The notes beneath the pieces are model-generated. The model saw nothing but the letters and a program-made list of their open reading frames with translations. It made no database searches and had not been told where the DNA came from. This document shows, in pieces, positions 2,669 through 64,000 of a stretch of 64,000 nt of DNA. Position numbers and translations under genes: made by a program. This DNA comes from Candidatus Doudnabacteria bacterium RIFCSPHIGHO2_02_FULL_42_25 (GTDB lineage: Bacteria > Patescibacteriota > Doudnabacteria > UBA920 > O2-02-FULL-48-8). Numbering within the stretch: position 1 is the first letter of the stretch; each line of letters starts with the position of its first letter. Location of the stretch: positions 24,309 to 88,308 of the forward strand of contig MFEQ01000006.1 in NCBI GenBank assembly GCA_001777665.1, written 5' to 3'.

Positions 2669-3970
2669 TCATAAACCATTAACCATCTTGATAAACTGCT
2701 CTCCGCGATCCTTATAATCTTTAAACATGTCGAAACTTGATGCTCCGGGAGAAAGTAAGACCAAATCCCCAGACACAGCCACGTTCTCTATTTGATCGAA
2801 AATTTCTTTCATATTCACAGCTCCCGTCAACAACTTGCCTTGAAACCCTTCTAACTGCTTGGTAATTTTTGACGCTTCCTCACCAATCACAATCACTGCC
2901 TTCACACTTGGAGATGTTTTTATGACGTTAGCTAAAACTTTGTACTGAAGTCCTTTGCTAGCACCTCCGACAATCAATATTTCTGATTGCGTAAAAGTTT
3001 TAATCGCCGCGATAGTGGATTCTTCATTCGTGCTGATTGAATCATCGACATATGTAATTCCATTTTTCACTGCAACGACGTTTAACCGGTGAGGTAACGG
3101 TTGAAATTCTGCCACAGATTTTCTTATCGATTCATCCGCAATTTTAAAAATTTTGGCGACTTCAATTGCGGCTGCAATATTGTCCCAATTGTGACTTCCT
3201 AAAAGCTTAGTCTGGTAATTTGATGCCGAATTTGGATCTATGAAAACCTTTTGACCTAATCCCAGTTTTTGGAACCATTCGGGAAGACTTTTATGAATTA
3301 CCGCGTAATCATCCTGCTTTTGATGAGCTATAATGTTCGACTTCGCTCGGAGGTACTCTTCCAAATTTTTATGATGATTTAAATGATCCGGTGAAATCGA
3401 TAACACAACCGCAATGTGCGGGGATTGTTCTAAATCTTGTAACTGAAAACTAGATAATTCTAAGACCACCAAGTCATCGGATTGAATTTGTTCAAGAAAT
3501 TCAAAAGGATCTTGGCCGATATTCCCAGCAACCCAAACCCGCCCGCCACGCAAGACAGCCCCGCCTGCAACGCGAGCTTGCGAGCGGGCAGGTTGCTGGC
3601 GTTGCGGGCTGGCTTTTTTACTACCGGTGGATAGCATTTCTGCAATCAAAACTGTTGTAGTCCCTTTTCCTTTCGTTCCGGTCACACCAATGATTGGAGC
3701 TGGACAAAGCTCAAAAAAAAGTTTCGTCTGACTGGAAATTTCGACTCCAGCTTCTTTCGCTTTCTGTATTGATTTTGACAGATACGGCAGTCCGGGTGTG
3801 CGAAAAATTATGTCGAACTTTGTCAGTTGATCGATTAGCTCGGCTTCCGATTTCCAATCATGGACAATCGTAAAACTAAGTTCGTTTTTGTTAAAAAAAT
3901 CGGCTAATTTTTGATTGTTGGTACCATAGCCGATGATGCCAATTTTTTTTCCTGTTAACTTCGAAAACAT
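2669..3970 (-). CDS. murD: UDP-N-acetylmuramoylalanine--D-glutamate ligase
   Basis: Mur ligase P-loop GVTGTKGKGTT; 433 aa. Carries an in-frame GC-rich insertion (about 3529-3616) encoding SPQRQQPARSQARVAGGAVLRGGRVW. Confidence 0.8.
   Translation of the reverse strand: MFSKLTGKKIGIIGYGTNNQKLADFFNKNELSFTIVHDWKSEAELIDQLTKFDIIFRTPGLPYLSKSIQKAKEAGVEISSQTKLFFELCPAPIIGVTGTKGKGTTTVLIAEMLSTGSKKASPQRQQPARSQARVAGGAVLRGGRVWVAGNIGQDPFEFLEQIQSDDLVVLELSSFQLQDLEQSPHIAVVLSISPDHLNHHKNLEEYLRAKSNIIAHQKQDDYAVIHKSLPEWFQKLGLGQKVFIDPNSASNYQTKLLGSHNWDNIAAAIEVAKIFKIADESIRKSVAEFQPLPHRLNVVAVKNGITYVDDSISTNEESTIAAIKTFTQSEILIVGGASKGLQYKVLANVIKTSPSVKAVIVIGEEASKITKQLEGFQGKLLTGAVNMKEIFDQIENVAVSGDLVLLSPGASSFDMFKDYKDRGEQFIKMVNGL
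3529..3616. repeat. GC-rich palindromic module inserted in-frame in murD (RPE-like)
   Basis: Starts aacccgcccgccacgcaag and ends gcgttgcgggctgg. The same termini occur in the module at 33857-33897. Local GC far above flanking coding sequence. Confidence 0.6.
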
Positions 3971-12877: not shown

Positions 12878-12909
12878 TTACCTAGTTGCCCATATGGGCA
12901 ACTAGGTAA
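12878..12909. repeat. Perfect 32-bp palindrome ttACCTAGTTGCCCATATGGGCAACTAGGTaa (CATATG-core palindrome family, copy 1)
   Basis: Identical 28-bp core at 49787-49814 and 63554-63581. Variants at 43124-43157 and 62962-62989. Confidence 0.9.
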
Positions 12910-12959: not shown

Positions 12960-14444
12960 CTAGTTCTCTACTTCCCCGCCCATAATTTTGAGGGCGGACT
13001 CCACTAACTCATCTTTTTGCTCCACTTGAGCCTCACCTTTTTGTAACGTAGGTTTTACCATCAGTTTCAGTCCCGTCACTTCTTCGATTACTTGATCGAC
13101 AACGATTCGATTCTTACGCGCTTCGATCGCATCTTTATGAAATTTATATGGAAATATCACTACCAGTTCTTTTCCTTCTATAGAAATAGGCTGAGCTAGT
13201 TTTAAACTCGAGATAAGCGAGTGGTTATATTCTTTTAGTTTTTCCAGAATCTGCGGCCAGTGAGCTTGGACTTTGGCAAATAACTCCCCCTCGCCCTCTC
13301 TTACATTAAGAGGGGGTTCCTCTGCTGCTTCATCCCCCCTTAATATAAGGGGGGATTGAGGGGGGTTATTCTCCTCGGTCGCCTCTACTGCGGCTAATTC
13401 AAGTGGCAGACTCTGGATCGATGACCATTTGATTTCACCTTCAGCTTTCTGGAATATCTGAATGATCTGCATAATTCTTGGCAATTCCAAAGCTTGGGCT
13501 TGATCCTTCATCTTCTGTGAAATTTCTTCGGTATAACCAAAATCAGAAGTTGTCCCCACTTTCGTCAACAATATTTTTCGCAAATACTCTAAAAAATCTT
13601 TTTCAAATTGATATAAATCTTTGCCCCCATAAGTCAGATCTGAAATAAAACTCACCGCTTCTTGGGTTTGATTTTCTACGAGCAGATCTAGGAATTTACT
13701 CAAAGTCTTCACGCCTGTTAAACCGAGGACTGTTTCGACTAATTCTTCAGTAATCTCGCCTTCGGCGTAATTCATAACTTGATCGAGTAGTGATAGCCCA
13801 TCTCGAAAACTGCCATCCGCAGCAGTCGCGATTTCCATCAGGGCTCCTTCACTAACTTTGATCTGATTATCGGAAGCCACATATGCGAGATGCTTGCTTA
13901 AATCTGCAATGCCGACTTTTTTAAAATCAAATCGTTGCGTCCGCGAAATAATCGTGGCTGGAACTTTATGAATTTCGGTCGTGGCCAAAATAAATACGGC
14001 ATGACTCGGTGGTTCTTCCAAAGTCTTAAGTAATGCATTAAAAGCGCCTTTTGAAAGCATGTGCACTTCATCGACAATAATCACTTTATATGTGGCCTTA
14101 GTTGGGGCAAATTGCAAATGATCGATCAATTCTCGAATATTATCCACGCCAGTGTGCGACGCCGCATCTATTTCCAGCAAATCTAAACTGGTATTCTCTA
14201 GAAATGGTTTACAGATCTCGCATTCGTTGCAGGGTTCCGAGCCTGTTCTATTCTGACAATTAATAGCCCGCGCAAAAATCCGAGCTAGCGTCGTTTTCCC
14301 GACCCCTCTGGGTCCGGTGAATAAATAAGCGTGGCCCACGCGATTATTGGCGACCGCATTGGCGAGCGTGGTTTTGATGTGTTCCTGATTGACCACGGAA
14401 CCGAAATTCAGTGGCCGATATTTTCTATACAATACTAAGTTCAT
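12960..14444 (-). CDS. dnaX: DNA polymerase III subunit gamma/tau
   Basis: Walker A GPRGVGKTT, clamp-loader motifs. Contains an in-frame GC-rich insertion (about 13290-13375) encoding EENNPPQSPLILRGDEAAEEPPLNVREGEGE. Confidence 0.85.
   Translation of the reverse strand: MNLVLYRKYRPLNFGSVVNQEHIKTTLANAVANNRVGHAYLFTGPRGVGKTTLARIFARAINCQNRTGSEPCNECEICKPFLENTSLDLLEIDAASHTGVDNIRELIDHLQFAPTKATYKVIIVDEVHMLSKGAFNALLKTLEEPPSHAVFILATTEIHKVPATIISRTQRFDFKKVGIADLSKHLAYVASDNQIKVSEGALMEIATAADGSFRDGLSLLDQVMNYAEGEITEELVETVLGLTGVKTLSKFLDLLVENQTQEAVSFISDLTYGGKDLYQFEKDFLEYLRKILLTKVGTTSDFGYTEEISQKMKDQAQALELPRIMQIIQIFQKAEGEIKWSSIQSLPLELAAVEATEENNPPQSPLILRGDEAAEEPPLNVREGEGELFAKVQAHWPQILEKLKEYNHSLISSLKLAQPISIEGKELVVIFPYKFHKDAIEARKNRIVVDQVIEEVTGLKLMVKPTLQKGEAQVEQKDELVESALKIMGGEVEN
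13334..13374. repeat. Copy of the ccccttaatataagggg-ggttag-gaggggttat element embedded in-frame in dnaX
   Basis: ccccccttaatataaggggggattgaggggggttattctcc. Compare 60616-60669 and 21040-21085 (reverse orientation). Confidence 0.65.
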
Positions 14445-16537: not shown

Positions 16538-16638
16538 TTTAACCATTTCGAGGGCCGGTCAATTGACCGGTTAGCGAGAAATCGATTTTCCGAGAGTGAC
16601 TCCTCTTAGGAGGGATCTCTCACTTCGTTCGAGATGGG
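16538..16638 (+). repeat. Structured repeat family ccatttcga...GGAGGGATCTCTCACTTCGTTCGAGATGG, copy A
   Basis: Shares aaccatttcga, an internal GC hairpin (ggccggtcaattgaccgg), gagaaatcg and a 29-nt 3' block with copies at 19844-19919 and 27001-27082. 5' ccatttcga pairs with 3' tcgagatgg (one G-U pair). Confidence 0.7.
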
Positions 16639-19193: not shown

Positions 19194-19831
19194 CAGTTTG
19201 TAAACTTAAAAGTCGAAAGGATTTGATCAAAATCCAGTATTAAGTTCTCCTGATTATAAAAATGCGAATCAGACCCTAGTCTTAGGATATAAATTTTATT
19301 ATTGTTTGGTAAAAAAACATAAATAACTGCACCTCCTTCACCATCATATTTCTGTTTAAGGCCAATTTTATCATCTACTCTAAGCTCATTTTGCTGAAAG
19401 GAAAAACCGACTTCACTTTCATTGAGTATTTTGTCTATTTCATCTTTTGAATTATATTGTTCAGAACTTGTAAGCCATTGAGTTAGATTTAAATTCGACA
19501 AATTATTTTCTGTACTGATCTCTAATCCCGAAAACTCATCAATATCAAATATTATAGTTTTATCATCAGAGGAAATTATAAAATAACTTGGATATTTAAA
19601 CTCAAATCCATAATCTGTATTTGTATAAGTTTTCCAATCTGACGGAACGTCAGATTGCTCCGACCGAAGCGTCGGAGCTTCTTGACTGATCTCTGACTTT
19701 TTTATCTCCTGCCACCAGAAATATGAACCTGCGATTAATACTAAAAGCAAAACTCCAAGGACGGTATACAAAACCTTGTGGTTTAATACTGGATGGTTTG
19801 GTGGAATTGGGTTTTGGTTTTCTATTTGCAT
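19193..19831 (-). CDS. Membrane-anchored hypothetical protein, paralog 1 (shares ITQIAPTLRSEQSDVPSDWKTYTNT(E/D)YGFEFKYP module with next gene)
   Basis: N-terminal TM helix. About 90-nt stretch nearly identical to 20731-20810. Confidence 0.45.
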   Translation of the reverse strand: MQIENQNPIPPNHPVLNHKVLYTVLGVLLLVLIAGSYFWWQEIKKSEISQEAPTLRSEQSDVPSDWKTYTNTDYGFEFKYPSYFIISSDDKTIIFDIDEFSGLEISTENNLSNLNLTQWLTSSEQYNSKDEIDKILNESEVGFSFQQNELRVDDKIGLKQKYDGEGGAVIYVFLPNNNKIYILRLGSDSHFYNQENLILDFDQILSTFKFTN

Positions 19832-19843
19832 TGTTTATTATTT

Positions 19844-19919
19844 TAACCATTTCGACCCCGGACTTGATCCGGGGGAGAAATCGCTCTTGGGAGGGATCTC
19901 TCTCTTCGTTCGAGATGGG
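19844..19919 (+). repeat. ccatttcga...GGAGGGATCTCTCTCTTCGTTCGAGATGG element, copy B
   Basis: ttttaaccatttcga + hairpin ccccggacttgatccgggg + gagaaatcg + gggagggatctctctcttcgttcgagatggg. Confidence 0.7.
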
Positions 19920-19967: not shown

Positions 19968-21017
19968 TTAATTCGCGAATTTAAAAGTCGAAAGCAATTT
20001 ATTTGCATCAATTAATGCGCCCTCTCCACCATTATAAACATCTAAGTTAATCTCATTATCTTCTCCCCAACTTGATGGGTAATTCGTTAGTTGAATTGAA
20101 ATGGTCTCTATGAGCTGGTTCGGGCACTTAATCATTCGCGGGCATTCGTAGCGCTTTGCTGAAAATCCTGCAAATTTAGTTTCTTCGATAGGAACATTCG
20201 CTCCTATGTCGAAAACACTTTCTCTTCCAATATTTTCTGCGGCAATTTCAAATTCTACGTACACGGTACCATTTTCTTCGTTAGCCAAGTAAGCACTCGT
20301 TCTGTCGCCAACTGATCTTACCTGCCAATATTCATTGGGAAAAATAAATTCATACCCATATTTATAACTAATAAACTTTTTATAAAAACCTGTAGTAACT
20401 ATCGAGTACTCATTAATCTTAATAGTCGAAAGGACTGGCAGTATAATTTTAGGGTTACCAGAAAATGTCAAAACATTTTCACCAGATTTAATTTCATAAT
20501 TTCCTGTTTCATGTCCACCTTGACCTCCCGAATAATAAGTAAATTCATAACCGTTTATTGCCTCTTTGTTTACACTTTGTGGGTCAGCCGTATTTAAATA
20601 TGATTCCCAACTAAACCAAAGGTCTATATCTCCCTCGAACAGAGGATTTTCCATCTTTTGTTTAGTCTCGGCTGAAATAAAACCTACTGCGTGAGGATCA
20701 AGATAAATTTCCCAGTCATTGGGATATTTAAACTCAAATCCATATTCGGTATTCGTATAAGTTTTCCAATCTGACGGAACGTCAGATTGCTCCGACCGAA
20801 GCGTCGGAGCAATCTGAGTGATCGCTGCTTCCTTCTTTAACTCATACCACCAATCGACAGAGCCAATCACCACGACAAAAAGCAGGACCCCGATAGTGGT
20901 CCAGAGAACTTTCGTTGTAAATAGTTTTAGTATTTCGTCGAGTTTGTTTTTATTTTCCATTGTGTTTATTTCAATTTTATTCTCCCCCTCGAGGGGGAGA
21001 CAGAACCAAGAATTCAA
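19968..21017 (-). CDS. Membrane-anchored hypothetical protein, paralog 2 (349 aa from ORF-track TTG; an internal ATG near 20961 is an alternative start)
   Basis: Same signal-anchor + APTLRSEQSDVPSDWKTYTNTEYGFEFKYP module as paralog 1. 5' region contains palindrome tctccccctcgagggggaga. Confidence 0.45.
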   Translation of the reverse strand: MNSWFCLPLEGENKIEINTMENKNKLDEILKLFTTKVLWTTIGVLLFVVVIGSVDWWYELKKEAAITQIAPTLRSEQSDVPSDWKTYTNTEYGFEFKYPNDWEIYLDPHAVGFISAETKQKMENPLFEGDIDLWFSWESYLNTADPQSVNKEAINGYEFTYYSGGQGGHETGNYEIKSGENVLTFSGNPKIILPVLSTIKINEYSIVTTGFYKKFISYKYGYEFIFPNEYWQVRSVGDRTSAYLANEENGTVYVEFEIAAENIGRESVFDIGANVPIEETKFAGFSAKRYECPRMIKCPNQLIETISIQLTNYPSSWGEDNEINLDVYNGGEGALIDANKLLSTFKFAN

Positions 21018-21039
21018 CTGCAGTCTAAGGCTTAGGATA

Positions 21040-21085
21040 TAACCCCTCCTAACCTCCCCTTATATTAAGGGGAGGAACAACTGCA
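21040..21085 (-). repeat. gcagttgttcctccccttaatataaggggaggttaggaggggttat element (reverse orientation) in the 5' leader of paralog 2
   Basis: Reverse complement is about 95% identical over about 46 nt to 60616-60669. Confidence 0.75.
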
Positions 21086-26401: not shown

Positions 26402-26508
26402 CGCTCGGAATAAAATTTTTATGCACCGGCCATAAAATTCTGCTGAATTTTTGGCCTACGCGCTCGGTCCGTCGACCTGCGCGAGTTGCTAAAAATTTAT
26501 TCCTCGCT
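26402..26508 (+). ncRNA. Candidate structured RNA (about 105 nt), copy 1 of a two-copy family with compensatory changes
   Basis: Conserved core accggccRtaaaattctgctgaattttYggcctacgcgctcggtccgtcgacctgcgcgagtt. Closing stems differ between copies but are each self-complementary. A/G and T/C substitutions maintain a base pair in the ggccRtaaaattc hairpin. Confidence 0.45.
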
Positions 26509-27000: not shown

Positions 27001-27082
27001 TACCACTTCGAACGATTAGTGAGAAGTCGCTCCTACAAGGGTTAGCGCTTGGAGGAGGGATCTCTCACTTCGTTCGAGATGG
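27001..27082 (+). repeat. ccacttcga...GGAGGAGGGATCTCTCACTTCGTTCGAGATGG element, copy C
   Basis: Shares 5' accaYttcga, gagaaRtcg and the 29-nt 3' block with copies A and B. Confidence 0.65.
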
Positions 27083-27139
27083 TAAAACGCTTTCGCTGGG
27101 ATGGTAAAAAAAGTCATGATTTAGTAGAATATGTAGGCT

Positions 27140-27763
27140 ATGTCCACTCTACCAAAATCGATTCATAATTTAATCAATGAATTTTCCAAACTTCCTGGGA
27201 TCGGACCCAAAAGCGCTTCCCGGCTGACTTTTTATTTACTCAAAAATCCGGAGATTGATTTACAAGGATTTTCTACTGCCATCGCCAATCTCAAAAAAGA
27301 TGTCATCTATTGTTCGACTTGCTTCAATATGGCCGAGACTAGTCCATGTAAAATTTGTTCTGATCCGAAAAGAGACCAGAAACTGATCTGTGTGGTAGAA
27401 GATGCTCTCGATGTCGTGGCCATGGATCAGATCGCTGATTTCAATGGTGTCTACCACGTCTTAGGTGGTGTTATCTCTCCGCTAAATGGAGTTAGTCCTG
27501 AAAATCTGAAAATCAAAGAACTGCTCAATCGATTAGAGCAGTTGGATCTAGGTGAAATCGTTCTGGCGACAAATCCTTCGCTTGAAGGCGAAGCGACAGC
27601 TATGTATATCACTAAACAAATCAAAATTCAAAATTCAAAATTCAAAAATATCAAAAATATCAAAATCACCCGAATCGCGAGAGGATTGCCCACTGGTGCT
27701 GATCTCGAGTATGCGGATGAGTATACTTTATCCAAAGCCTTGGAGGGCCGAAGGGAGTATTAA
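27140..27763 (+). CDS. recR: Recombination protein RecR
   Basis: C4 zinc finger CSTCFNMAETSPCKIC and Toprim domain. Contains an in-frame simple-sequence repeat (27622-27668). Confidence 0.85.
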   Translation: MSTLPKSIHNLINEFSKLPGIGPKSASRLTFYLLKNPEIDLQGFSTAIANLKKDVIYCSTCFNMAETSPCKICSDPKRDQKLICVVEDALDVVAMDQIADFNGVYHVLGGVISPLNGVSPENLKIKELLNRLEQLDLGEIVLATNPSLEGEATAMYITKQIKIQNSKFKNIKNIKITRIARGLPTGADLEYADEYTLSKALEGRREY

Positions 27764-31951: not shown

Positions 31952-33539
31952 CTATCAAATTATAATGAAAAAGTTCCTAAAAGACAACTGGATTCTGCTT
32001 TTAATTGCTGCCCTGGCTGTTTTTTTTCGATACTGGCAAATCACGAGTTTGCCGGGTGGATTATTCCCTGACGAAGCCGCCAACGGCTTAGATGTTAATA
32101 ATATTTTAAAGGGTGAAATTCAGCCCTTTTATGAACGGGGCAATGGTCGCGAAGCCTTGTTTTTTTACTTTTTGGCAGCGGTCGTAGAGTTTTTTGGTCG
32201 CGGGGCCTGGCAACATCATGTGATCTCCGCGGGATTTAGTGTCGCCACTGTGATTGCCACTTATTTTTTGGCCAAACGAATGTTTGGAAAAAATGTGGCT
32301 CTGCTCTCCTCTTTTTTCATGGCAGTATCGAGCTATGCTGTAATCGTGTCTCGAACCGCGTTTCGAGCCAACACTGTGCCCCTGATGGCAACTCTGACTC
32401 TTTTTTTCTTAGTCAAATTTTTTCAGGCCGAAGATAAAAAAACAAAGTATTGGTCAGCTGCTGCCTCCGGCTTATTTTTTGCTTTAGGGTTTTACACCTA
32501 CATTTCTTTCCGAATGATGGTCCCGCTCCTCGTCGGGTTTGGAGCCCTCCTGTTTTTAGCCAAACGAAGCAACTGGAAAGAAGTGTTCAGGGTTTATACA
32601 AAATACAAACTGGTGTTTGCTGGAGCATTCATCCTTGGGATTAGCTGGATCGCTAATTACTTTTATCAGCATCCAGGAAGTTTCGTTGGCAGAGCTGGCC
32701 ACGTTTCAATTTTCAACAAAGATTTAAACAACGGTAACATTCTTGGCACTTTCTTCGACGTTTTCATTAAAACTATGGTTGGGTTTTTCACTGAAGGTGA
32801 TCTGAATTGGCGACATAATGTCTCGGGACAACCGTTTCTCTCGCCGTACATCAGCCCATTTTTTGCTGTAGGCTTGATTTTGTTTACAATAGCGATGTTT
32901 GTTCTGCTGAAACAAGTTTGGGAACAAAAACTCAAAGCCGAAACTGTCTACATGGCCCTCTGCGGCACTTGGTTTTGGTTTATGTTAGCCCCTGAAGTGA
33001 CAACCGCAGAAGGCATTCCGCATGGACTGCGACTGATAGGGGTCATCCCAGTTGTGTTTATTATTTCAGCTTGGGGTATTTACTGGGTTTGGAAAAAACT
33101 TACCGTCAATCATCATGGCTGGCCGAAATATTATTTCGCAACCTTATTTTTATCAATTGTCGCAGTATTTAATTTTTATTTATACTTTGTCGTTGCTGCT
33201 GGGTCTCCCGAATACTATTATTCGTTCCGATCAGACTTAACCTCGGTTTCGGAATATTTGAATCAACGCAATCTCAAAGATCGAACTTATTTATCACTGG
33301 ATAAGTTTTCCGTGCAAACTGTTGATTATCTGACCACGGAAAAAAACCAGCCATTTATTCTAGTTGATCCCGCGCACACTTATGAAGTAAAATTAAAAAA
33401 AGGTGACCAGGTTGTCTTCACCATGAGCACGATCTACGATCGGATAAAATTTACAGAATTTCATCCAAACGCTCAATTAGTTGGTGAATACTTCAACCAA
33501 TTCAATGAGCTAATTATGTTGGTCTATGAGCAAAAGTAA
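31938..33539 (+). CDS. GT39/GT83 (ArnT/PMT-like) membrane glycosyltransferase
   Basis: N-terminal FRYWQITSLPGGLFPDEAANG..GREALFFYF pattern of ArnT-family enzymes; 533 aa polytopic. Confidence 0.6.
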   Translation: MVENIYQIIMKKFLKDNWILLLIAALAVFFRYWQITSLPGGLFPDEAANGLDVNNILKGEIQPFYERGNGREALFFYFLAAVVEFFGRGAWQHHVISAGFSVATVIATYFLAKRMFGKNVALLSSFFMAVSSYAVIVSRTAFRANTVPLMATLTLFFLVKFFQAEDKKTKYWSAAASGLFFALGFYTYISFRMMVPLLVGFGALLFLAKRSNWKEVFRVYTKYKLVFAGAFILGISWIANYFYQHPGSFVGRAGHVSIFNKDLNNGNILGTFFDVFIKTMVGFFTEGDLNWRHNVSGQPFLSPYISPFFAVGLILFTIAMFVLLKQVWEQKLKAETVYMALCGTWFWFMLAPEVTTAEGIPHGLRLIGVIPVVFIISAWGIYWVWKKLTVNHHGWPKYYFATLFLSIVAVFNFYLYFVVAAGSPEYYYSFRSDLTSVSEYLNQRNLKDRTYLSLDKFSVQTVDYLTTEKNQPFILVDPAHTYEVKLKKGDQVVFTMSTIYDRIKFTEFHPNAQLVGEYFNQFNELIMLVYEQK

Positions 33540-35067
33540 AGAAATAATTACTCGCGACAATTCTGGAATATTTAAACTCCTGGGTATTTTAATCCTCGGC
33601 GGTTTGCTTCGATTTTACAACAATACTGCTGTAGCACTCTGGCACGATGAAGCCTTTTCTGCTCTTTACATCAAGTACTCTTGGTCAGAAATGATGCATC
33701 GAATCGGCCTGGATGTGCACCCTCCCCTCTACTATTGGGTCTTGCGTTTGTGGAGCTATGTCTTCGGTGACGGACTACTTTCGTTACGGTTCTTGTCGAT
33801 ACTCTTTGGAGTCCTCACGATCTACGCTGGCTATCTGTTCGTTAAAAAGGCTTTTAACCCGCCCGCCCCGCAAGCGGGAGCGTTGCGGGCAGGTAATCCG
33901 AAGCTGGCTTTGATTGCCGCGTTCTTTCTGGCGATCAACCCTTTTCAAATTCAGTACTCACTGGAAGCGAGAATGTATACACTCGGAACTTTTCTGGTTT
34001 TGATAAGCACCTGGTTGCTACTGAAAGCATTAGAAGATAACAAGTACTCAACTTGGGCCTGGTATGGAGTAGCTACTGCAGCAGGACTACTCACCCATTA
34101 CTACATCGTGTTTTCAATCATGGCTCAAGGGCTTTATGTCCTCTATTTATTTATCCGAAATCGAAAAATCAACTACAAAGCGGTCGGGAGTTATATTTTG
34201 GCCGCTATCCTCTTTTTGCCGTGGCTACCGACATTCCTGATCCAAATCAAGCGCGTCACTTCAGCTTTTTGGATTCCAGAACCTGATCGATGGAGCGTAC
34301 CCAGTACAATTTTCAAAATGATTTTTGGAGGCCAGGGTAATGATCACTTAACTTTGATCGTTATTTTGATTGTCGCAATTTTTGTCATCTATTATTTTTT
34401 TAAAGAAACCAAGCCTCCAATTCGATGGTTAATTATTTCAGGTGTGGCTATCCCATTTCTCGCAGCCATCCTGTTATCTTTTAAGCAAGCTATCTACCTG
34501 GATCGATACTTTGTCTTTGCTTCACTCTTTTTCACTATCCTTATAGCGGCAGCTTTGTTTTATGTGCCTAAATATACCACTCGCAGAACGCTCACGATCG
34601 TCTTTGCACTGATCAGTCTTATTCTATTTTTCAAAAACTGGCAGGACCTTGGTGTGAAAAATTTAATTTTTAATCGACAGGTCAATTACAAACCGGGGAT
34701 GGCCGCGGCGGCGGAATTTATCAATGATGGTGCCCAATCAACTGATAAAATTTATGTCGGCTCCAGTTTTATCTACTTTACTTTCAAATATTATAACCAA
34801 ACCGAAATCAGGCCACTTCTCTATTCTTCAGGTTCACTTGAAACAATTCCACATTTTTCCGGCACTGCAATTCTCACCAATGATGATTTAATTCTGGATT
34901 TTAAACCAACAGAAAAAAACAGCAATGTCTGGTTGCTGTGGACAACAGGATTTAGCGGTTCCAAGCCAAACGTTCCAGGAAATTGGAGTATAGTCACCGA
35001 GAAGCAATGGACTGACACCCCCGGGTTTAAAGGTGAAATAATCGTTACCGAGTACCGGGTGGATTAA
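33526..35067 (+). CDS. Second GT39/ArnT-like membrane glycosyltransferase (paralog)
   Basis: LRFYNNTAVALWHDEAFSALYI...HPPLYYW. Contains in-frame GC module 33857-33897 (FNPPAPQAGALRAGNPK). Confidence 0.6.
   Translation: MSKSKEIITRDNSGIFKLLGILILGGLLRFYNNTAVALWHDEAFSALYIKYSWSEMMHRIGLDVHPPLYYWVLRLWSYVFGDGLLSLRFLSILFGVLTIYAGYLFVKKAFNPPAPQAGALRAGNPKLALIAAFFLAINPFQIQYSLEARMYTLGTFLVLISTWLLLKALEDNKYSTWAWYGVATAAGLLTHYYIVFSIMAQGLYVLYLFIRNRKINYKAVGSYILAAILFLPWLPTFLIQIKRVTSAFWIPEPDRWSVPSTIFKMIFGGQGNDHLTLIVILIVAIFVIYYFFKETKPPIRWLIISGVAIPFLAAILLSFKQAIYLDRYFVFASLFFTILIAAALFYVPKYTTRRTLTIVFALISLILFFKNWQDLGVKNLIFNRQVNYKPGMAAAAEFINDGAQSTDKIYVGSSFIYFTFKYYNQTEIRPLLYSSGSLETIPHFSGTAILTNDDLILDFKPTEKNSNVWLLWTTGFSGSKPNVPGNWSIVTEKQWTDTPGFKGEIIVTEYRVD
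33857..33897. repeat. GC-rich palindromic module in-frame in the GT39 gene (same family as the murD insert)
   Basis: aacccgcccgccccgcaagcgggagcgttgcgggcagg. Shares the 5' 19-mer and 3' gcgttgcgggc with 3529-3616. Confidence 0.6.
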
Positions 35068-41160: not shown

Positions 41161-42633
41161 TTATTGCTCTTTCATTGGTGGGAAAATTACGGTTTCCCGC
41201 ATTGGTTTATTCATAATTACTGAAAAAAATCTTTCGCTCATCCCAAACCCGACAGCCGGTGGCATGCCATACTCGAGAGCTTCGACATAATCAGCGTCCA
41301 ACATCTGGGCTTCCTTGTCTCCCGCTTCGCGTAATTTCATTTGCTCTTGGAATCTCTGCATTTGATATAGCGGATCGTTGACTTCGGAGAAGCCATTGCC
41401 CAATTCAGTTTTCGCCGCTAACACTTGAAAGCGCAAACTTTTCTTGGAATTTACAGGGTCAACTTTGGCCAATGGGGATAATTCAAACGGATGCCCGACT
41501 AAGAAACATGGTTGAACCAGCTTTTGGCGCACTGTTCGCTTATATATAGAATCAATCAATTTTCCTCTGCCCCAATTCTTATCATACGGAGCACCAAGTG
41601 CATCTGCTTTTTTTTGTAAATCCGCGATTGTAGCAGAATTCAAATCCAATCCAGTCTCTTTTTTAAACACCTCGAAGTAATCTAGTCTAGGCCATCCGCC
41701 AGCTGGCGGATTTCCCCAATCAATTTTTTGCTCCTCATATTCTGTCACGAGTCCGCCCGTAACGTTTTTAATCACTTCTTTAAACATTTCTTCGACTAAC
41801 TTCATCCCTTTTTCATGATCAGCAAATGCCCAATAGAATTCCATGTCATCGTATTCCTGCAAATGTTCCCGATCAATCCCTTCGTTCCGGAACAATCTAC
41901 CAATTTCAAAAACTTTTTCATAACCCCCGACCAGTAATCTTTTGAGTGGTAACTCCAAAGAGATCCGTAAATAAAAATCTCGATCAAGTGCATTATGATG
42001 GGTCATGAACGGTTCCGCATCTGCTCCTCCAGGTACGTTTTCCAAAACTGGTGTCCAGACTTCCAAAAAATCTTTTTTGATCATAAAGTTTCGGATAGTT
42101 TGCCAGAAAAGCGCTTTTTTCCGAAACATTTCTTTGGTTTCTGGATTCATGAGCAAATCCAAATATCGTTTGCGGAGACGAGTTTCAGTATCTTTCAATC
42201 CGAAATATTCTTGTGAAATCGGGCGGATCGATTTCGTGAGTAATTTGTAATCTAATGTCTGAAGAGTTTTTTCGCCGGTTTTTGACAGCTCCAAAAACCC
42301 AGTGACTTCGATAAAATCCCCTATATCAAAAAAGTTTCGGAAATCACCGAACATTTGCTCACCGAGAGTTTCGGAACGGAGCATGAATTGGATCGAGTCC
42401 GATGAATCTTCGAGATTGCCAAAAGTTAATTTGCCATGAGTGCGAATTGATCGAATTCTCCCGGTGATGGTGATCTCTTTTTTTGTACTCGAAAGTAAAT
42501 CGAACTGTTCCAATGCAGAACCTATCAAATGCGTGCGATGTGATTCGACTGGATAGGGATCAATCCCTGATTTTTTAAGTTGTTCTAATTTTTGTATCCG
42601 AACTTGTCGGAGCTCTTCGATCTTCTCAGTCAT
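41161..42633 (-). CDS. lysS: Lysine--tRNA ligase (class II)
   Basis: N-terminal OB-fold MTEKIEELRQVRIQKL and class II motifs. Contains an 18-mer atccgccagctggcggat (41694-41711) also found intergenically at 63774-63791. Confidence 0.85.
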   Translation of the reverse strand: MTEKIEELRQVRIQKLEQLKKSGIDPYPVESHRTHLIGSALEQFDLLSSTKKEITITGRIRSIRTHGKLTFGNLEDSSDSIQFMLRSETLGEQMFGDFRNFFDIGDFIEVTGFLELSKTGEKTLQTLDYKLLTKSIRPISQEYFGLKDTETRLRKRYLDLLMNPETKEMFRKKALFWQTIRNFMIKKDFLEVWTPVLENVPGGADAEPFMTHHNALDRDFYLRISLELPLKRLLVGGYEKVFEIGRLFRNEGIDREHLQEYDDMEFYWAFADHEKGMKLVEEMFKEVIKNVTGGLVTEYEEQKIDWGNPPAGGWPRLDYFEVFKKETGLDLNSATIADLQKKADALGAPYDKNWGRGKLIDSIYKRTVRQKLVQPCFLVGHPFELSPLAKVDPVNSKKSLRFQVLAAKTELGNGFSEVNDPLYQMQRFQEQMKLREAGDKEAQMLDADYVEALEYGMPPAVGFGMSERFFSVIMNKPMRETVIFPPMKEQ

Positions 42634-56370: not shown

Positions 56371-56960
56371 ATTCTTTTTACAGCTTCAATGAACATTTTG
56401 TTAGTATCGTCAGATACAATTATGAGCCCTCGCACTATTCTTCTGTATGCAGGATCATCGGATTGGCCTCTTCCTCTCGTTATATGATCGAAGCCTCCTA
56501 CTGCAGTCACTAAAATCCAAGGATTGTGCTCTTCCACATCAGGTAATTCATGCCGGTGCTCATTGAAATCCCGACGGTATTCATCTAACCGTAACTGCAG
56601 TAATTTATCCCAATCGATCAAGAATTTCTCCTCAATCCCGAAAGATTTTAAAATTTCTTTGTATGCAGTGAGAATTCCATTTTTTACTTCTTTCAAATAC
56701 TCCCTAAAAAAATCTTCGTGAAAATTAATCAGTGTTTCAGTTTGAAAATAGACTAAACAGAGCGCCGTGACTACTAATTCATTAAAGATCCGATCTTGTT
56801 CAGTTTGGGATAACGAGTCAAAATTAATTTCGCTTCTAAAATCTATATTTCGAAATAAGTCAAAAGCTGACTTTATTGCCTTCATAGTAATGGCCACAGT
56901 ATCTTTTGCCGAATTTGGAGGACCGTAAACAAGTTTTCTGAACATAAAATAGAGTCTCAC
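56367..56960 (-). CDS. Hypothetical protein (197 aa) with possible HEPN-like Rx4H motif (RRDFNEH)
   Basis: ORF. The motif call is weak pattern-matching only. Confidence 0.3.
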   Translation of the reverse strand: MRLYFMFRKLVYGPPNSAKDTVAITMKAIKSAFDLFRNIDFRSEINFDSLSQTEQDRIFNELVVTALCLVYFQTETLINFHEDFFREYLKEVKNGILTAYKEILKSFGIEEKFLIDWDKLLQLRLDEYRRDFNEHRHELPDVEEHNPWILVTAVGGFDHITRGRGQSDDPAYRRIVRGLIIVSDDTNKMFIEAVKRI

Positions 56961-56965
56961 TACGC

Positions 56966-57514
56966 CTAATTGTGCGATCGTGTATTTTGCGTAGAATCAA
57001 ACAGCATTCTGCCTTCTAGGATATTAACATTTAATTCTACTTGTAATTCTTTTAATAGCTCTTTAAATTCTGGTAGTAGCTCCCAAGGTCCGATAAAAAC
57101 ACTCTTTTGCAACATCATAAAGCCGTTTTGAATTAAAAATCGTCTTAAAAATTGTCTGGCTTTTTTCTTTTCTTCGGGGATATCAAACATAACTAGAGTT
57201 GAAAATCCGTTATTCTTTGCCCTTCTCAACTTTCTTGAGTATATATATTTCAAACTCCTTGCCCGCCCTAAATTCGTTATCTGATAGTATGTTTTTCTTT
57301 CTTTTTTGATTTTTTTTACTAAGCCATCTCTGTCTAGTTCCCAAAAAGCTCTGGAAATTTTATAGCGATCATAATATTTAAGCCTTTTGATATATTGATA
57401 CTTGCCTTCAAAAGGATAAGGAATCAGCTCCCCCATATCGCGCAAAAACCAAAGCAATTCTCCAGTAATTGTCTTTAGACGCTTCTTGATTTTTCTTTTG
57501 GTAGTACGTTTCAT
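56966..57514 (-). CDS. wHTH + Cas2-like (VapD/Cas2 fold) protein, paralog A
   Basis: C-terminal half LVMFDIPEEKKKARQFLRRFLIQNGFMMLQKSVFIGPWE matches the Cas2 signature (V.YD.s....R..l...L...G.r.Q.SVF). Basic N-terminal domain. Paralog at 62995-63546. Confidence 0.4.
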   Translation of the reverse strand: MKRTTKRKIKKRLKTITGELLWFLRDMGELIPYPFEGKYQYIKRLKYYDRYKISRAFWELDRDGLVKKIKKERKTYYQITNLGRARSLKYIYSRKLRRAKNNGFSTLVMFDIPEEKKKARQFLRRFLIQNGFMMLQKSVFIGPWELLPEFKELLKELQVELNVNILEGRMLFDSTQNTRSHN

Positions 57515-57549
57515 ACGTATTTTACGCGATCGCGCATTTTACGTATTAT
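57514..57549 (+). repeat. 36-bp direct repeat (right copy) tacgtattttacGCGATCGCgcattttacgtattat
   Basis: See 56335-56370. Confidence 0.8.
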
Positions 57550-57556
57550 AGCAAAT

Positions 57557-60615: not shown

Positions 60616-60669
60616 GCAGTTGTTCCTCCCCTTAATATAAGGGGAGGTTAGGAGGGGTTATTCATAAGG
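60616..60669 (+). repeat. gcagttgttcctccccttaatataaggggaggttaggaggggttattc element in the 5' leader of the BNR-repeat gene
   Basis: See 21040-21085 and 13334-13374. Confidence 0.75.
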
Positions 60670-62961: not shown

Positions 62962-62989
62962 TACCTAGTTGGCCATATGGGCATTTAGG
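62962..62989. repeat. Degenerate copy of the CATATG-core palindrome (acctagttgGccatatgggcaTTtaggt)
   Basis: Three substitutions relative to the perfect copies. Lies between the GC island and the Cas2-like gene. Confidence 0.7.
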
Positions 62990-62994
62990 TAAAG

Positions 62995-63546
62995 TCAGCC
63001 AAGTTTAAATCTTTTTATTAAATCGGCTTTTATATCTATTTCTTCAGCAGTTATTAATCGTACAAAAGGCCTTATCTCATAGATCTCTTTTAAAAAATCA
63101 ACTTCATCCTCACAAGGATAAGGACATGCCCAAAGACTTTTCTGGACGAGCTCAAAACCAATCTCCCCCAACTTCCTAGTAAACTCTTTTCGGTTATTAT
63201 TAAATTCGACTGGTATATCGTACGTTACTAATCGCCATTTTCTATCCCATTTTTTCTGTGGTTTAATTTTCATATCGTCAATTTTAAATTTCAACCATTT
63301 CTCCTTCCCTTTTTTCGTTAATTTAATAACGGTTTTATCTCCTTCCTGACCTATACTGACCATCCTTGAATTTTCTAAACCCTTAAAAGATCGATCTATT
63401 TGAGTCTTGCTATATTTCTTATATAAATCATACTGACGAAAAATTTCTGCCATACCTGGTGCCACTATGACCACTGCTAAAATCCCGACCTTGGACAGGA
63501 CGTATAAAATATCTTTAGCAATTTCCGAGCGTTTAGCCATACACAA
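62995..63546 (-). CDS. wHTH + Cas2-like protein, paralog B; bracketed by CATATG-core palindromes
   Basis: WRLVTYDIPVEFNNNRKEFTRKLGEIGFELVQKSLWACP matches the same signature as 56966-57514. Confidence 0.4.
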   Translation of the reverse strand: MCMAKRSEIAKDILYVLSKVGILAVVIVAPGMAEIFRQYDLYKKYSKTQIDRSFKGLENSRMVSIGQEGDKTVIKLTKKGKEKWLKFKIDDMKIKPQKKWDRKWRLVTYDIPVEFNNNRKEFTRKLGEIGFELVQKSLWACPYPCEDEVDFLKEIYEIRPFVRLITAEEIDIKADLIKRFKLG

Positions 63547-63553
63547 ATTCTAT

Positions 63554-63581
63554 ACCTAGTTGCCCATATGGGCAACTAGGT
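63554..63581. repeat. Perfect 28-bp palindrome ACCTAGTTGCCCATATGGGCAACTAGGT (copy 3), 8 nt upstream of the Cas2-like gene start
   Basis: Identical to copies 1 and 2. Confidence 0.9.
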
Positions 63582-63627
63582 TACGGGTGTACCCAGTTGT
63601 TCACTTATTAAAAAGACTTGTTCTTAA

Positions 63628-63700: not shown

Positions 63701-64000
63701 TATCTCTTGAGATTTTCTAAACGTTTAATAGGCTTAACCTCAAGTAGTCTACAAAGAGTAAATATTCGCGTCAATCCGCCAGCTGGCGGATCAAAAAAAC
63801 AGTGTAACTAAAAGGGTTTTCTTTCGATGTGTGCAGAACTTGTGTGTAACACGTGAGTAATCTGTGATGAAGCAAACTCCGACGCTCCGGTCCGGAGTTG
63901 CTACCGCAACAAAAAAACCACCGTTAGGAGGTTTTTTTGATAAAGACCGGTGTGCTGCGATGAAACTTGGATTGCACTTACGAACTCCCCAAGCCTAGGA

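Follow-up and report, generated by a model that had tools for sequence, protein, structure and literature searches.

In-frame palindromic blocks in murD and GT39 genes of a Candidatus Doudnabacteria bacterium as probable copies of a miniature GC-rich repeat family

Introduction

In-frame palindromic repeats in essential genes are usually seen as a curiosity of Rickettsia, with scattered cases among the REPs. The latter occur in hundreds of copies per genome and are mainly extragenic. MITEs, another class of short repeats, are usually 50–400 bp long, carry a target duplication of fixed length and have a recognisable parent IS. Rickettsia palindromic elements (RPEs; Ogata et al. 2000, 2002) measure about 105–146 bp and are described as confined to Rickettsia (summarised in PMC10969869, PMC3184786). 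REPs of the GTAG and CGTC super-families are mobilised by RAYT tyrosine transposases (IS200-like Y1), which are typically REP-flanked; intragenic REPs are found in uvrA, uvrB and recB, and REP families are species- or genus-specific (PMC3733652). The GC clusters of yeast mitochondria and the byps of Magnusiomyces carry AG/TAG terminal repeats that are taken as target duplications (PMC8811140).

The 64-kb stretch of DNA analysed here (the window) is part of one contig of Candidatus Doudnabacteria (CPR), an uncultured groundwater bacterium. Two of its essential genes, murD and a GT39 glycosyltransferase gene, are interrupted by palindromic blocks that are probably secondarily inserted copies of one miniature GC-rich palindromic repeat family.

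Two palindromic insertions in the window

The two host genes and the elements that they carry are as follows.

2669–3970, − strand: murD (UDP-N-acetylmuramoylalanine--D-glutamate ligase), host gene; Pfam Mur_ligase_M and Mur_ligase_C
3538–3612, + strand: composite palindromic insertion in murD (gene on the − strand), 75 nt, 25 codons
3560–3592, − strand: nested 33-nt short-form copy, within the apical loop of the outer element in murD
33526–35067, + strand: GT39/PMT_2 family glycosyltransferase, host gene; Pfam PMT_2
33858–33893, + strand: short-form element CCCGCCCGCCCCGCAAGCGGGAGCGTTGCGGGCAGG in the GT39 gene, 36 nt, 12 codons

The borders of both elements were set by profile searches and ortholog alignments and are slightly narrower than those of a first-pass annotation, which had placed GC-rich modules with common termini at these positions. 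The termini are indeed common to both blocks, beyond chance: the 19-nt left terminus AACCCGCCCGCCMCGCAAG has two exact occurrences in 64 kb, at 3536 and 33856, both on the + strand, with none expected in a shuffled window (100 shuffles), and the right terminus GCGTTGCGGGC has exact matches at 3599 and at 33880. The opposite orientation reported earlier is true relative to the host genes, since on the DNA both copies are oriented equally. The reading frame is kept in both, as had also been claimed, and the added codons encode the peptides ASPQRQQPARSQARVAGGAVLRGGR in murD and PPAPQAGALRAG in GT39.

The GC content of the inserts is 75–83%, compared to 40% in the genome. Both blocks form hairpins in folding computations, with modest z-scores of about −2 to −3 because any DNA so GC-rich folds well. 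Profiles built from the copies of other genomes recovered both window copies at full length and had no further match in the window. Both proteins are recorded with their inserts in 42–49 independent assembly blocks from several sources, and a gene-by-gene comparison of about 40 kb with relatives found no GC-rich internal insertions other than palindromic blocks. The lack of stop codons in any of the six frames was considered as a sign of adaptation and rejected: 47% of shuffles are likewise stop-free, and the property follows from GC-richness and hence is no evidence of adaptation. Rfam had no match at the blocks with E values up to 10 allowed, and its one match in the entire window was a tRNA. 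The window also contains a 143-nt MITE at 2526–2668, with a TCAT duplication.

The insert in murD sits after the P-loop helix. MurD is 433 aa long here vs 408–410 aa in orthologs, and the 25-aa segment is lacking in 16 of the 19 nearest of them. The insert is also absent from the syntenic relatives L136 and L137, where the site reads GGAAAAAAA followed directly by GTTTGG; the empty-site junction is clean (AAAAAA/GTTTGG in both) and target duplication was not seen. In the AlphaFold model of MurD (mean pLDDT 87.9), residues 119–139 score below 50 and lie between a helix (104–116) and a strand (145–149).

The murD block had been described as one element of about 88 nt. The block is there, but it is not a single element: it consists of two nested copies totalling 75 nt. 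The outer one is a 42-nt long-form element, CCCGCCCGCCACGCAAGACAGC and TTGCTGGCGTTGCGGGCTGG, which is split at its hairpin tip by the second copy; the whole of 3538–3612 folds into one long hairpin and gives a full-length match to the long-form profile (E 2.4e-6). Unsplit 42-nt versions (...ACGCAAGACAGCTTGCTGGCG...) are present in L035 and L064. In nhmmer, the short-form profile gives a weak match (3589–3561, − strand, E 0.28) where the split of the outer element predicts the nested copy, and about 28 of 36 columns of this copy match the canonical 36-mer when aligned by eye. The best match is inverted, but a palindrome leaves the orientation uncertain.

The GT39 block, placed in a short loop joining two helices, gives a full-length match to the short-form profile (E 3.1e-8). 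The 12-aa segment is missing in all orthologs displayed, including one that is 80% identical, and in the syntenic relative L133 the gap measures exactly 36 nt, with TTCAAC/AACCCT against TTTAAC[36 nt]AATCCG here; duplication was not seen. The AlphaFold model (mean pLDDT 80.5) has residues 114–122 below 50, between helices 84–109 and 125–136. Both window inserts are precise, in-frame, later insertions; ortholog alignments and nucleotide-level empty sites in the syntenic relatives bear out what the first-pass annotation had proposed for these two genes. Both inserts are predicted to occupy disordered loops within otherwise confident folds.

Other hairpin families of the genome

Two further kinds of palindrome are found in the window, one centred on dnaX and one on the AspRS gene.

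12960–14444, − strand: dnaX (DNA polymerase III gamma/tau); Pfam DNA_pol3_delta2, DNA_pol3_gamma3 and DnaX_C
13290–13375, − strand: dnaX linker block, two C-run/G-run hairpins
13294–13316 and 13333–13355: the dnaX hairpins CCCTCTCTTACATTAAGAGGGGG and TCCCCCCTTAATATAAGGGGGGA, read as ...SPLILRG...PPLNVREG...
21039–21084, − strand: intergenic dnaX-type hairpin repeat GCAGTTGTTCCTCCCCTTAATATAAGGGGAGGTTAGGAGGGGTTAT, 46 nt, between called genes
60616–60661, + strand: intergenic dnaX-type hairpin repeat, 100% complementary to 21039–21084
41694–41711, no strand assigned: palindrome ATCCGCCAGCTGGCGGAT of a third, smaller family, within the AspRS gene (41161–42633, − strand)
63774–63791, no strand assigned: intergenic twin of the 18-nt AspRS palindrome, ATCCGCCAGCTGGCGGAT

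The dnaX palindromes had been grouped with the murD and GT39 blocks as lineage-specific insertions. They are real (folding z = −4.65) and are located in a linker, which joins domain III of DnaX to its C-terminal domain, but they belong to a different repeat family. Nor are they confined to this species: both hairpins are present in an ortholog with 78% identity (L136). The dnaX segment 13336–13371 is 86% identical to the intergenic repeat at 60628–60663, and the copy at 60616–60661 has stops in all six frames, with TAA in place of the CAA of the dnaX copy. All relatives have a hypervariable linker, and in many Doudnabacteria it contains PPLxxRGG peptides; a compensating C-G to T-A change is seen in a dnaX hairpin between species. 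The dnaX hairpins thus form a separate family of older repeats, which the window also carries twice between genes.

Compared with its counterpart in the relative L133, the AspRS gene has 12 extra nt. TCCGCC...GGCGGA hairpins are also present in L010–L012, at the GT39 insertion site, and in L136, within an RNaseH-like gene. Both the dnaX hairpins and the 18-nt AspRS palindrome behave like the murD and GT39 elements, as unrelated hairpin families.

The repeat family in other genomes

The common termini, CCCGCCCGCCNCGCAAG ... GCGTTGCGGGCAGG, are those of a widely dispersed family, often in frame within housekeeping genes. The scan covered one genome per species and found at least 119 loci; 96 copies among the matches listed lie in loci with a GC content below 0.58. 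Of these, 42 agree at every position of the 33-nt core, in which the search pattern had left 10 inner bases free; the pattern fixed 22 bases and so produced part of the conservation. The elements are 36, 42 or 44 nt long. Their terminal inverted repeats are imperfect (CCYGCCCGC ... GCGGGCRGG), and they have an internal loop as well as an apical stem that varies. Hosts among the matches listed comprise at least 15 named CPR lineages and Desulfobacterota, including the closed chromosomes CP070843.1 and CP070673.1. Matches in IMG/VR are found in two contigs only, and the module was not found in PLSDB plasmids or GenBank phages.

Among the matches listed, 21 of 88 copies lie within open frames of at least 250 codons. 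Copies are under-represented there, long open frames holding 24% of those listed vs 48% of random segments. The in-gene hosts, by NCBIfam, are MiaA, TsaD (twice), UvrC, MurE, IleRS, AspRS, a PcrA-like helicase, Elp3 and GrpE. Every well-supported in-gene copy keeps the frame and has no stop. Copy length is a multiple of three in 19 of the 21, and the six frames are used unevenly (11, 5, 4, 1, 0, 0), biases that are weak (Fisher p = 0.08) and include orthologous, hence not independent, copies; MurE in L090 and L102 is one such orthologous filled site. The 44-nt form is represented, among the matches listed, by nine copies outside genes and one doubtful copy inside.

In L095 and L107, copies are at the centre of another inverted repeat, and C/G-run hairpins adjoin 10 of the 96 listed copies vs 1% expected. 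Three of the 96 adjoin tRNA 5' ends (0.16 expected), and in three more cases the copy occupies the D-loop position of a tRNA-like fragment. The idea that the module inserts into functional tRNA genes was not borne out: when it was removed in silico from three tRNA-like contexts (L103, L049, L066), ARAGORN restored no tRNA. Direct repeats of 5–7 nt flank 19.5% of the copies among the matches listed vs 2.6% of controls; they vary in length and are often part of tandem arrays. A fixed target duplication or target motif was also rejected, as the listed copies give no consistent duplication or consensus.

Signs of current mobility and of a copying enzyme were sought in several ways. Protein clusters at 90% contained filled alleles only, with presence/absence polymorphism not found, and strain contigs did not differ at either insertion site. 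In JGI metagenomes, neither an empty allele of GT39 nor an intermediate one of murD turned up, the murD pattern requiring at least one base between the flanks. Since no polymorphic site was seen, mobility is something that we infer. No transposase, recombinase or RAYT is present among the window genes, and no protein family, RAYT included, recurs near the 96 listed copies. A carrier gene was sought by comparing 883 ORFs near copies all-against-all, and only common housekeeping families emerged; likewise, no IS-sized pair of termini that could mark a parent IS was detected in the 96 listed loci of up to 8 kb. Literature searches with the DNA consensus and three typical peptides gave no match and no published description of the element, nor a paper connecting CPR with palindromic elements.

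Discussion

In behaviour, the family resembles RPEs and intragenic REPs. As in the cited descriptions of RPEs, its members are non-coding palindromic repeats, found between genes and in frame within unrelated housekeeping genes, where an extra peptide segment results and the protein is otherwise intact. The likeness to RPEs drawn by the first-pass annotation holds to this extent and does not amount to membership: the units measure 36, 42 and 44 nt (the 75 nt in murD being two units) vs 105–146 bp, and the host is not a Rickettsia; the comparison with RPEs covers behaviour, length and host. Furthermore, the family is nearly unchanged across many CPR phyla and Desulfobacterota, whereas RPEs are limited to Rickettsia in the cited descriptions.

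With REPs, the family shares its size, an imperfect GC-rich hairpin (20–40 nt in REPs) and the occurrence of dimers and grouped copies (PMC3733652), and some copies are located in replication/repair genes, here those of UvrC and a PcrA-like helicase. Unlike in REPs, GTAG, CGTC and their complements are absent from the consensus and borders, and the family spans phyla. No RAYT is seen in the window or near any listed copy. Copies number two loci in 64 kb, and 76% of those listed are outside long open frames. The mitochondrial GC clusters are likewise short, GC-rich and palindromic, and they lie mostly between the genes of an AT-richer genome, with in-frame cases in var1 and with merging and nesting; byps, however, are fungal organelle elements that break the frame and are skipped in translation, whereas the well-supported copies described here stay in frame (PMC8811140). 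MITEs resemble the present family in their terminal inverted repeats, the lack of coding capacity and the filled vs empty sites between relatives. Unlike a MITE, the 36-nt module has no target duplication at the two window sites when compared with the empty sites. No parent IS emerged from the 96 listed loci of up to 8 kb.

Taken together, these features look like those of a non-autonomous palindromic repeat of miniature size, a tiny piece of selfish DNA that proteins tolerate in surface loops. The element encodes nothing, and therefore the factor that copies it must act in trans. The best guess for this factor, by analogy with HUH/Y1 enzymes and REPs, would be a transposase whose substrate is the hairpin in single-stranded or extruded form. 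The element would have crossed phylum borders, as suggested by the almost identical copies in many CPR phyla and Desulfobacterota. Fresh copies would insert widely, the tips of existing hairpins included, which would give the arrangement of the murD block, a 42-nt copy with a 33-nt copy at its apex. In genes, the survivors would be those that have a length multiple of three, lack stops and lie in surface loops; they are presumably translated as disordered 12–25-residue loops rich in Pro, Ala, Arg, Gly and Ser, with little effect on the enzyme.

An unlikely alternative is that the module is a functional cis-element under selection, whose presence in genes is incidental. It could bind a protein, serve as a DNA-structure signal or, in the form of an RNA hairpin, influence the stability, processing or pausing of mRNA, a role that has been proposed for REPs. 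The near invariance across phyla of its sequence, beyond its structure, may reflect selection for function, and the copies at tRNA 5' ends and D-loop positions, the rarity of listed copies in long open frames and the compensating change in the dnaX hairpin point the same way. However, the host genes and positions are unrelated (MiaA, UvrC, MurE, IleRS, a glycosyltransferase and others), orthologs manage without the insert, no Rfam family matches, nested copies and pile-ups are hard to fit with a defined site function, and compensating palindrome changes could also be produced by palindrome-templated correction, without selection.

It is far less probable that the inserts are intervening sequences that never appear in the protein, either through ribosome skipping, as in byps, or through RNA removal. 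GC-rich palindromic clusters are bypassed in yeast mitochondrial genes (PMC8811140) and the hairpins here are stable, but the well-supported in-gene copies are all in frame and stop-free, the frame-breaking 44-nt form is essentially limited to non-coding DNA among the matches listed, and frame use favours mild Ala/Ser/Gly/Pro/Arg peptides. These biases count against skipping because they would be needless if the segment were skipped. Translated inserts would give the junction-spanning peptides AFNPPAPQAGALR and KASPQR...VWVAGNIGQDPFEFLEQIQSDDLVVLELSSFQLQDLEQSPHIAVVLSISPDHLNHHK-type tryptic fragments.

Equally hard to sustain is a local origin, in which template switching or slippage generates palindromes again and again at permissive loops. 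Different palindromes do occur at the same codon junction in different lineages, in six other GT39 orthologs and three other MurD orthologs, and very short ones, such as the 12-nt AspRS insert, could form so. For the 36–44-nt module this origin is contradicted: the 36-nt sequence is identical in dozens of genomes of different phyla, for which independent origin is impossible, and both window copies match profiles built solely from other genomes. A local origin is possible for the smallest palindromes only. The notion that the segments are ordinary lineage-specific protein loops, as the hypervariable dnaX linker might suggest, or assembly artefacts has a negligible chance of being right and is already contradicted by the independent assembly blocks, by the GC contrast with the genome, by flanks that in each case form one gene and by membership in a dispersed repeat family.

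A bolder reading is possible, albeit doubtful. The 36-nt module might be the smallest known horizontally spreading DNA element, which would integrate without target duplication, with a preference for unpaired or extruded DNA (hairpin tips, tRNA 5' edges, D-loop positions), and whose copying enzyme would so far have escaped recognition as a transposase. The near identity of copies in CPR and Desulfobacterota would then reflect recent DNA traffic between episymbionts and neighbouring or host bacteria, and the module could mark who exchanges DNA with whom.

What is new here is a CPR case, with an element 3–4 times shorter than an RPE, untagged and near-unchanged across phyla. The inserts inflate and distort alignments and trees of CPR markers (MurD, MurE, aminoacyl-tRNA synthetases, TsaD, UvrC) and give spurious small ORFs; the peptides PARLASESVAGR, PPASQARALRAG and PARNALACEAGG can serve as flags for masking. 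A 36-nt repeat that is identical between genomes is also a potential cause of chimeric joins in metagenome assemblies. With the element shared across phyla, one may ask which agent copies it and by what route it spreads. If its mobility and cross-phylum transfer are true, the family would be a compact model for the co-evolution of selfish DNA with protein loops.

Two GC-rich palindromic inserts in murD and a GT39 gene

The window, with a GC content of about 40%, recurs identically as positions 24357–88356 of contig MFFA01000003.1 (344,688 bp; GCA_001780055.1), and its sequence is found in JGI metagenome 3300002502 and many further assemblies from the same aquifer population. Identical and related proteins carry names that assign it to Candidatus Doudnabacteria (Patescibacteria/CPR). 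The first-pass annotation had described palindromic modules resembling Rickettsia palindromic elements (RPEs), inserted in frame in three genes, all confirmed by Pfam:

2669–3970, minus strand, murD
12960–14444, minus strand, dnaX
33526–35067, plus strand, GT39/PMT_2 gene

The positions of the three blocks agree with that description, and its interpretation is upheld in essence: the finding is real. Every block folds into a hairpin; the GC-rich ones have modest z-scores, between about −2 and −3. The left terminus common to the murD and GT39 blocks, AACCCGCCCGCCMCGCAAG, occurs exactly twice in the window (3536 and 33856, both on the plus strand; chance expectation none), and GCGTTGCGGGC, the right terminus they share, matches perfectly at 3599 and 33880.

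Ortholog alignments identify both segments as insertions, as had been proposed. MurD is 433 residues long here and 408–410 in relatives; its 25 extra residues, ASPQRQQPARSQARVAGGAVLRGGR, are missing in 16 of 19 aligned orthologs. The insert is also missing in two syntenic relatives, whose junction DNA reads GGAAAAAAA/GTTTGG. The 12 extra residues of the GT39 protein, PPAPQAGALRAG, are missing in all but six of 118 orthologs, and in L133, a syntenic relative whose GT39 is about 80% identical, precisely these 36 nt are absent: TTCAAC/AACCCT against TTTAAC–36 nt–AATCCG here. Neither site shows a target duplication. AlphaFold predicts confident host folds (mean pLDDT of 87.9 for MurD and 80.5 for GT39), in which each insert is modelled as a low-confidence loop flanked by regular secondary-structure elements.

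The same junctions hold different inserts in three other MurD and six other GT39 orthologs, and the DNA of these inserts is likewise GC-rich and palindromic (GCCCGCCTCGCGTCGACGAGCGAACGCGAGTCGAGGCGG in MurD, TCCGCC...GGCGGA hairpins in GT39). Such repeated occupation may reflect a target preference, or merely the tolerance of that loop. Apart from the murD and GT39 blocks, the internal GC-rich palindromic insertions found by gene-by-gene comparison with relatives, which covered about 40 kb, were one of 12 nt in AspRS and, in one relative, GGCGGATCCGCC within an RNaseH-like gene.

The module across genomes

One genome per species of the GTDB collection was scanned with a pattern composed of the left arm and GCGGGC, which gave at least 119 loci; the pattern fixes 22 bases, so the set is biased toward conserved copies. 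Of the listed loci, 23 are irregular, chance-like matches in GC-rich genomes, while the 96 listed copies in loci of less than 58% GC are strikingly uniform. A 33-nt core, CCCGCCCGCCTCGCAAGCGAGAGCGTTGCGGGC, followed by A/G-G-G makes up the 36-nt short form; other forms among the listed copies are 42 nt (...ACGCAAGCCAGCTTGCTGGCG...) and about 44 nt long. Variation between listed copies is confined to the apical part, and all forms share an outer stem of 8–9 bp, an internal loop and a short inner stem. The core is identical in 42 of the 96 listed copies, including ten inner bases that the pattern leaves free, and the identity of those ten cannot be due to chance or convergence.

Among the matches listed, the hosts include Saccharibacteria, Levy-, Zambryski-, Falkow-, Kuenen-, Shapiro-, Davies-, Roizman-, Gottesman-, Magasanik-, Lipton-, Komeili-, Pacei- and Doudnabacteria. 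Many Desulfobacterota MAGs, two of which are closed chromosomes (3.6 and 5.1 Mb), also carry the module, as do MAGs with the labels Syntrophobacter, Gammaproteobacteria and Aminicenantes. The MAGs stem from numerous independent studies. The module has no match in PLSDB plasmids or GenBank phages, is found in only two contigs of IMG/VR and corresponds to no Rfam family.

Profiles made solely from copies in other genomes recovered the following in the window, and no further copy:

33858–33893, short-form element, full length (profile E 3e-8)
3538–3612, long-form element, full length, with extra sequence at the apex (profile E 2.4e-6)
3560–3592, the extra 33 nt of the murD block, a diverged further copy (best match inverted and weak, E 0.28)

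The outer murD element is uninterrupted (...ACGCAAGACAGCTTGCTGGCG...) in L035 and L064, two loci from other genomes. Since the extra sequence is apical and uninterrupted versions exist, the murD block consists of 42 + 33 = 75 nt, with one copy nested at the hairpin tip of another.

Placement in and around genes

Open frames of at least 250 codons hold 21 of 88 listed copies, compared to 48% of random 36-nt segments from the same loci; thus, coding DNA is under-used yet far from avoided. Host genes identified by NCBIfam encode MiaA, TsaD (in two genomes), UvrC, MurE, IleRS, AspRS, a PcrA-like helicase, Elp3 and GrpE. Among the matches listed, 19 of the 21 in-gene copies have a length divisible by three (of the other two, one is a boundary effect and one probably lies 5' of the true start codon), the 44-nt form occurs nine times outside genes and almost never inside (Fisher p = 0.08), and reading-frame use is uneven (11, 5, 4, 1, 0, 0), the favoured frames being those translated as PARLASESVAGR, PARNALACEAGG and PPASQARALRAG. 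These frame and length biases, which are weak and partly based on orthologous, non-independent copies, point toward translation rather than skipping. Freedom from stops in all six frames was rejected as a special property, as 47% of shuffles share it.

A C-run/G-run hairpin lies within 45 nt of 10 of the 96 listed copies (1% expected). Three of the 96 adjoin the 5' end of a tRNA gene (0.16 expected), and three more follow the D-loop-like ...GGTA of tRNA-like fragments, where removal of the module restored no detectable tRNA. L095 and L107 each have the copy in the middle of another inverted repeat. Genome-specific direct or tandem units of 7–9 nt bracket the module in Desulfobacterota and some others; flanking repeats of at least 5 nt accompany 19.5% of listed copies and 2.6% of controls. 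They may be target duplications, pieces of larger composite repeats, or slippage beside a stable hairpin. L072, L113, L025, L073 and other non-CPR loci carry arrays of several different GC-rich hairpins with genome-specific 7–9-nt spacers (AAATCCC, AATGACC, CTAAAGTG); the L113 array is translated within an ArsA-like gene as MTNDQCP repeats and SPLEGGLRGV hairpin peptides.

The dnaX block and other repeats

The dnaX hairpins, which had been grouped with the murD and GT39 modules, belong to a separate family. Two intergenic copies of one repeat in the window match positions 13336–13371:

21039–21084 and 60616–60661, dnaX-type intergenic repeat, identical to each other over 46 nt

Stops interrupt all six frames of the intergenic copies, which have TAA where the dnaX copy reads CAA. 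The DnaX linker is hypervariable in every relative, and PPLxxRGG peptides (from CCCCCCTTA...TAAGGGGGG) recur in many of these linkers. In the dnaX ortholog of the syntenic relative L136 (78% identical), both hairpins recur in the same position; a compensating C-G to T-A change distinguishes one pair, and this ortholog has an additional palindrome of its own. The insertion is therefore older than the species, and the linker is a nest of hairpin repeats.

An 18-nt palindrome, ATCCGCCAGCTGGCGGAT, lies inside AspRS (41694–41711), a gene that exceeds its L133 counterpart by 12 nt, and a second time in intergenic DNA at 63774–63791. The GT39 insertion site of L010–L012 (other Doudnabacteria) and the RNaseH-like gene of L136 (8692–9210) carry related mini-hairpins, TCCGCC...GGCGGA.

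The window also contains two copies of a classical MITE, roughly 143 nt long and ending in inverted repeats of some 30 nt (CCCAGTATATCAACTTCGATAATGGTTTTTGA...), at 2526–2668 and 52363–52505; a third copy lies outside the window (L002, 19697–19853). The first sits exactly where the murD stop of relatives overlaps the ftsW start (ATGA); it has TCAT on either side, a 4-nt duplication through which both codons stay intact. The second occupies the same type of junction after mreC.

Small ORFs of 58–64% GC in this 40% GC genome (12315–12791, 61651–62265, 62460–62888 and also 49272–49721) match no Pfam family and are not paralogs of one another. After each comes a terminator-like hairpin and then a 31-nt palindrome:

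12879–12909, 49786–49816, 62962–62992 and 63553–63583, TACCTAGTTGCCCATATGGGCAACTAGGTA

The fourth copy lies upstream of a gene with a PaaX_M/Cas2-like domain (62995–63546, minus strand). Since contigs of other samples stop at the edge of the first ORF (12310/12311), it may be a cassette that varies between strains. A second PaaX_M/Cas2-like gene (56966–57514, minus strand) and its neighbour (56367–56960) are bracketed by a 37-nt palindromic repeat pair, TACGTATTTTAYGCGATCGCGCATTTTACGTATTATA (56335–56371 and 57514–57550).

Other repeats are a GGGATCTCTCACTTCGTTCGAGATGGG hairpin (16565–16638, 19884–19919, 27010–27083), a 123-nt direct repeat, 86% identical, between two PsbP_2-like genes (19573–19695 and 20705–20827) and a 63-nt inverted pair, 97% identical and 29 kb apart (26425–26487 and 55710–55772). 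Compared to L133, recR (27140–27763) carries a 15-nt tandem insert, AAAATTCAAAATTCA (KIQNS), at 27620–27648, a slippage-type indel with no palindrome. On the source contig just outside the window (L001, 17019–19244), LepA has 741 residues with a PDDEXK_3 nuclease-like match nested in the GTPase domain; LepA of the syntenic relative L137 has 590 and lacks this part, a possible large insertion in another core gene.

Probable mobility and related systems

We infer that the module is mobile from its nesting and dispersal, its near identity in different phyla, and sites that are filled in some species and empty in others. The window encodes no transposase or recombinase, no protein family recurs near the listed copies, and the sampled loci contain no IS-sized pair of termini; the listed copies have no target consensus or consistent duplication. 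No empty or intermediate allele appeared among 90% protein clusters or strain contigs, and JGI metagenomes yielded no empty GT39 allele and no intermediate murD allele. The module may have a selected function, or a host process may act on the hairpins. We favour, loosely, copying by a trans-acting enzyme that would recognise the hairpin.

In behaviour, the module is like RPEs (Ogata et al. 2000, 2002, as related in PMC10969869 and PMC3184786) and intragenic REPs (Di Nocera et al., PMC3733652), but it is much shorter than the former, lacks the GTAG/CGTC tag of the latter, and is a member of neither. The module also resembles the GC clusters of yeast mitochondria, known for in-frame insertion into var1 and for merging with each other (PMC8811140), yet it is not one of them. 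Unlike byps, the translationally bypassed inserts of Magnusiomyces mitochondria, it keeps the reading frame, and unlike MITEs, it has no fixed duplication and, in the sampled loci, no parent IS; it belongs to neither group. In openly available literature, we found neither its consensus nor its typical peptides, and nothing linking such elements with CPR; an earlier description may exist in subscription journals. New here are the definition of the element at 36, 42 and 44 nt and the recognition of the murD block as a nested pair, as well as a family common to many CPR phyla and Desulfobacterota, nearly unchanged, and placed repeatedly in frame in core genes.
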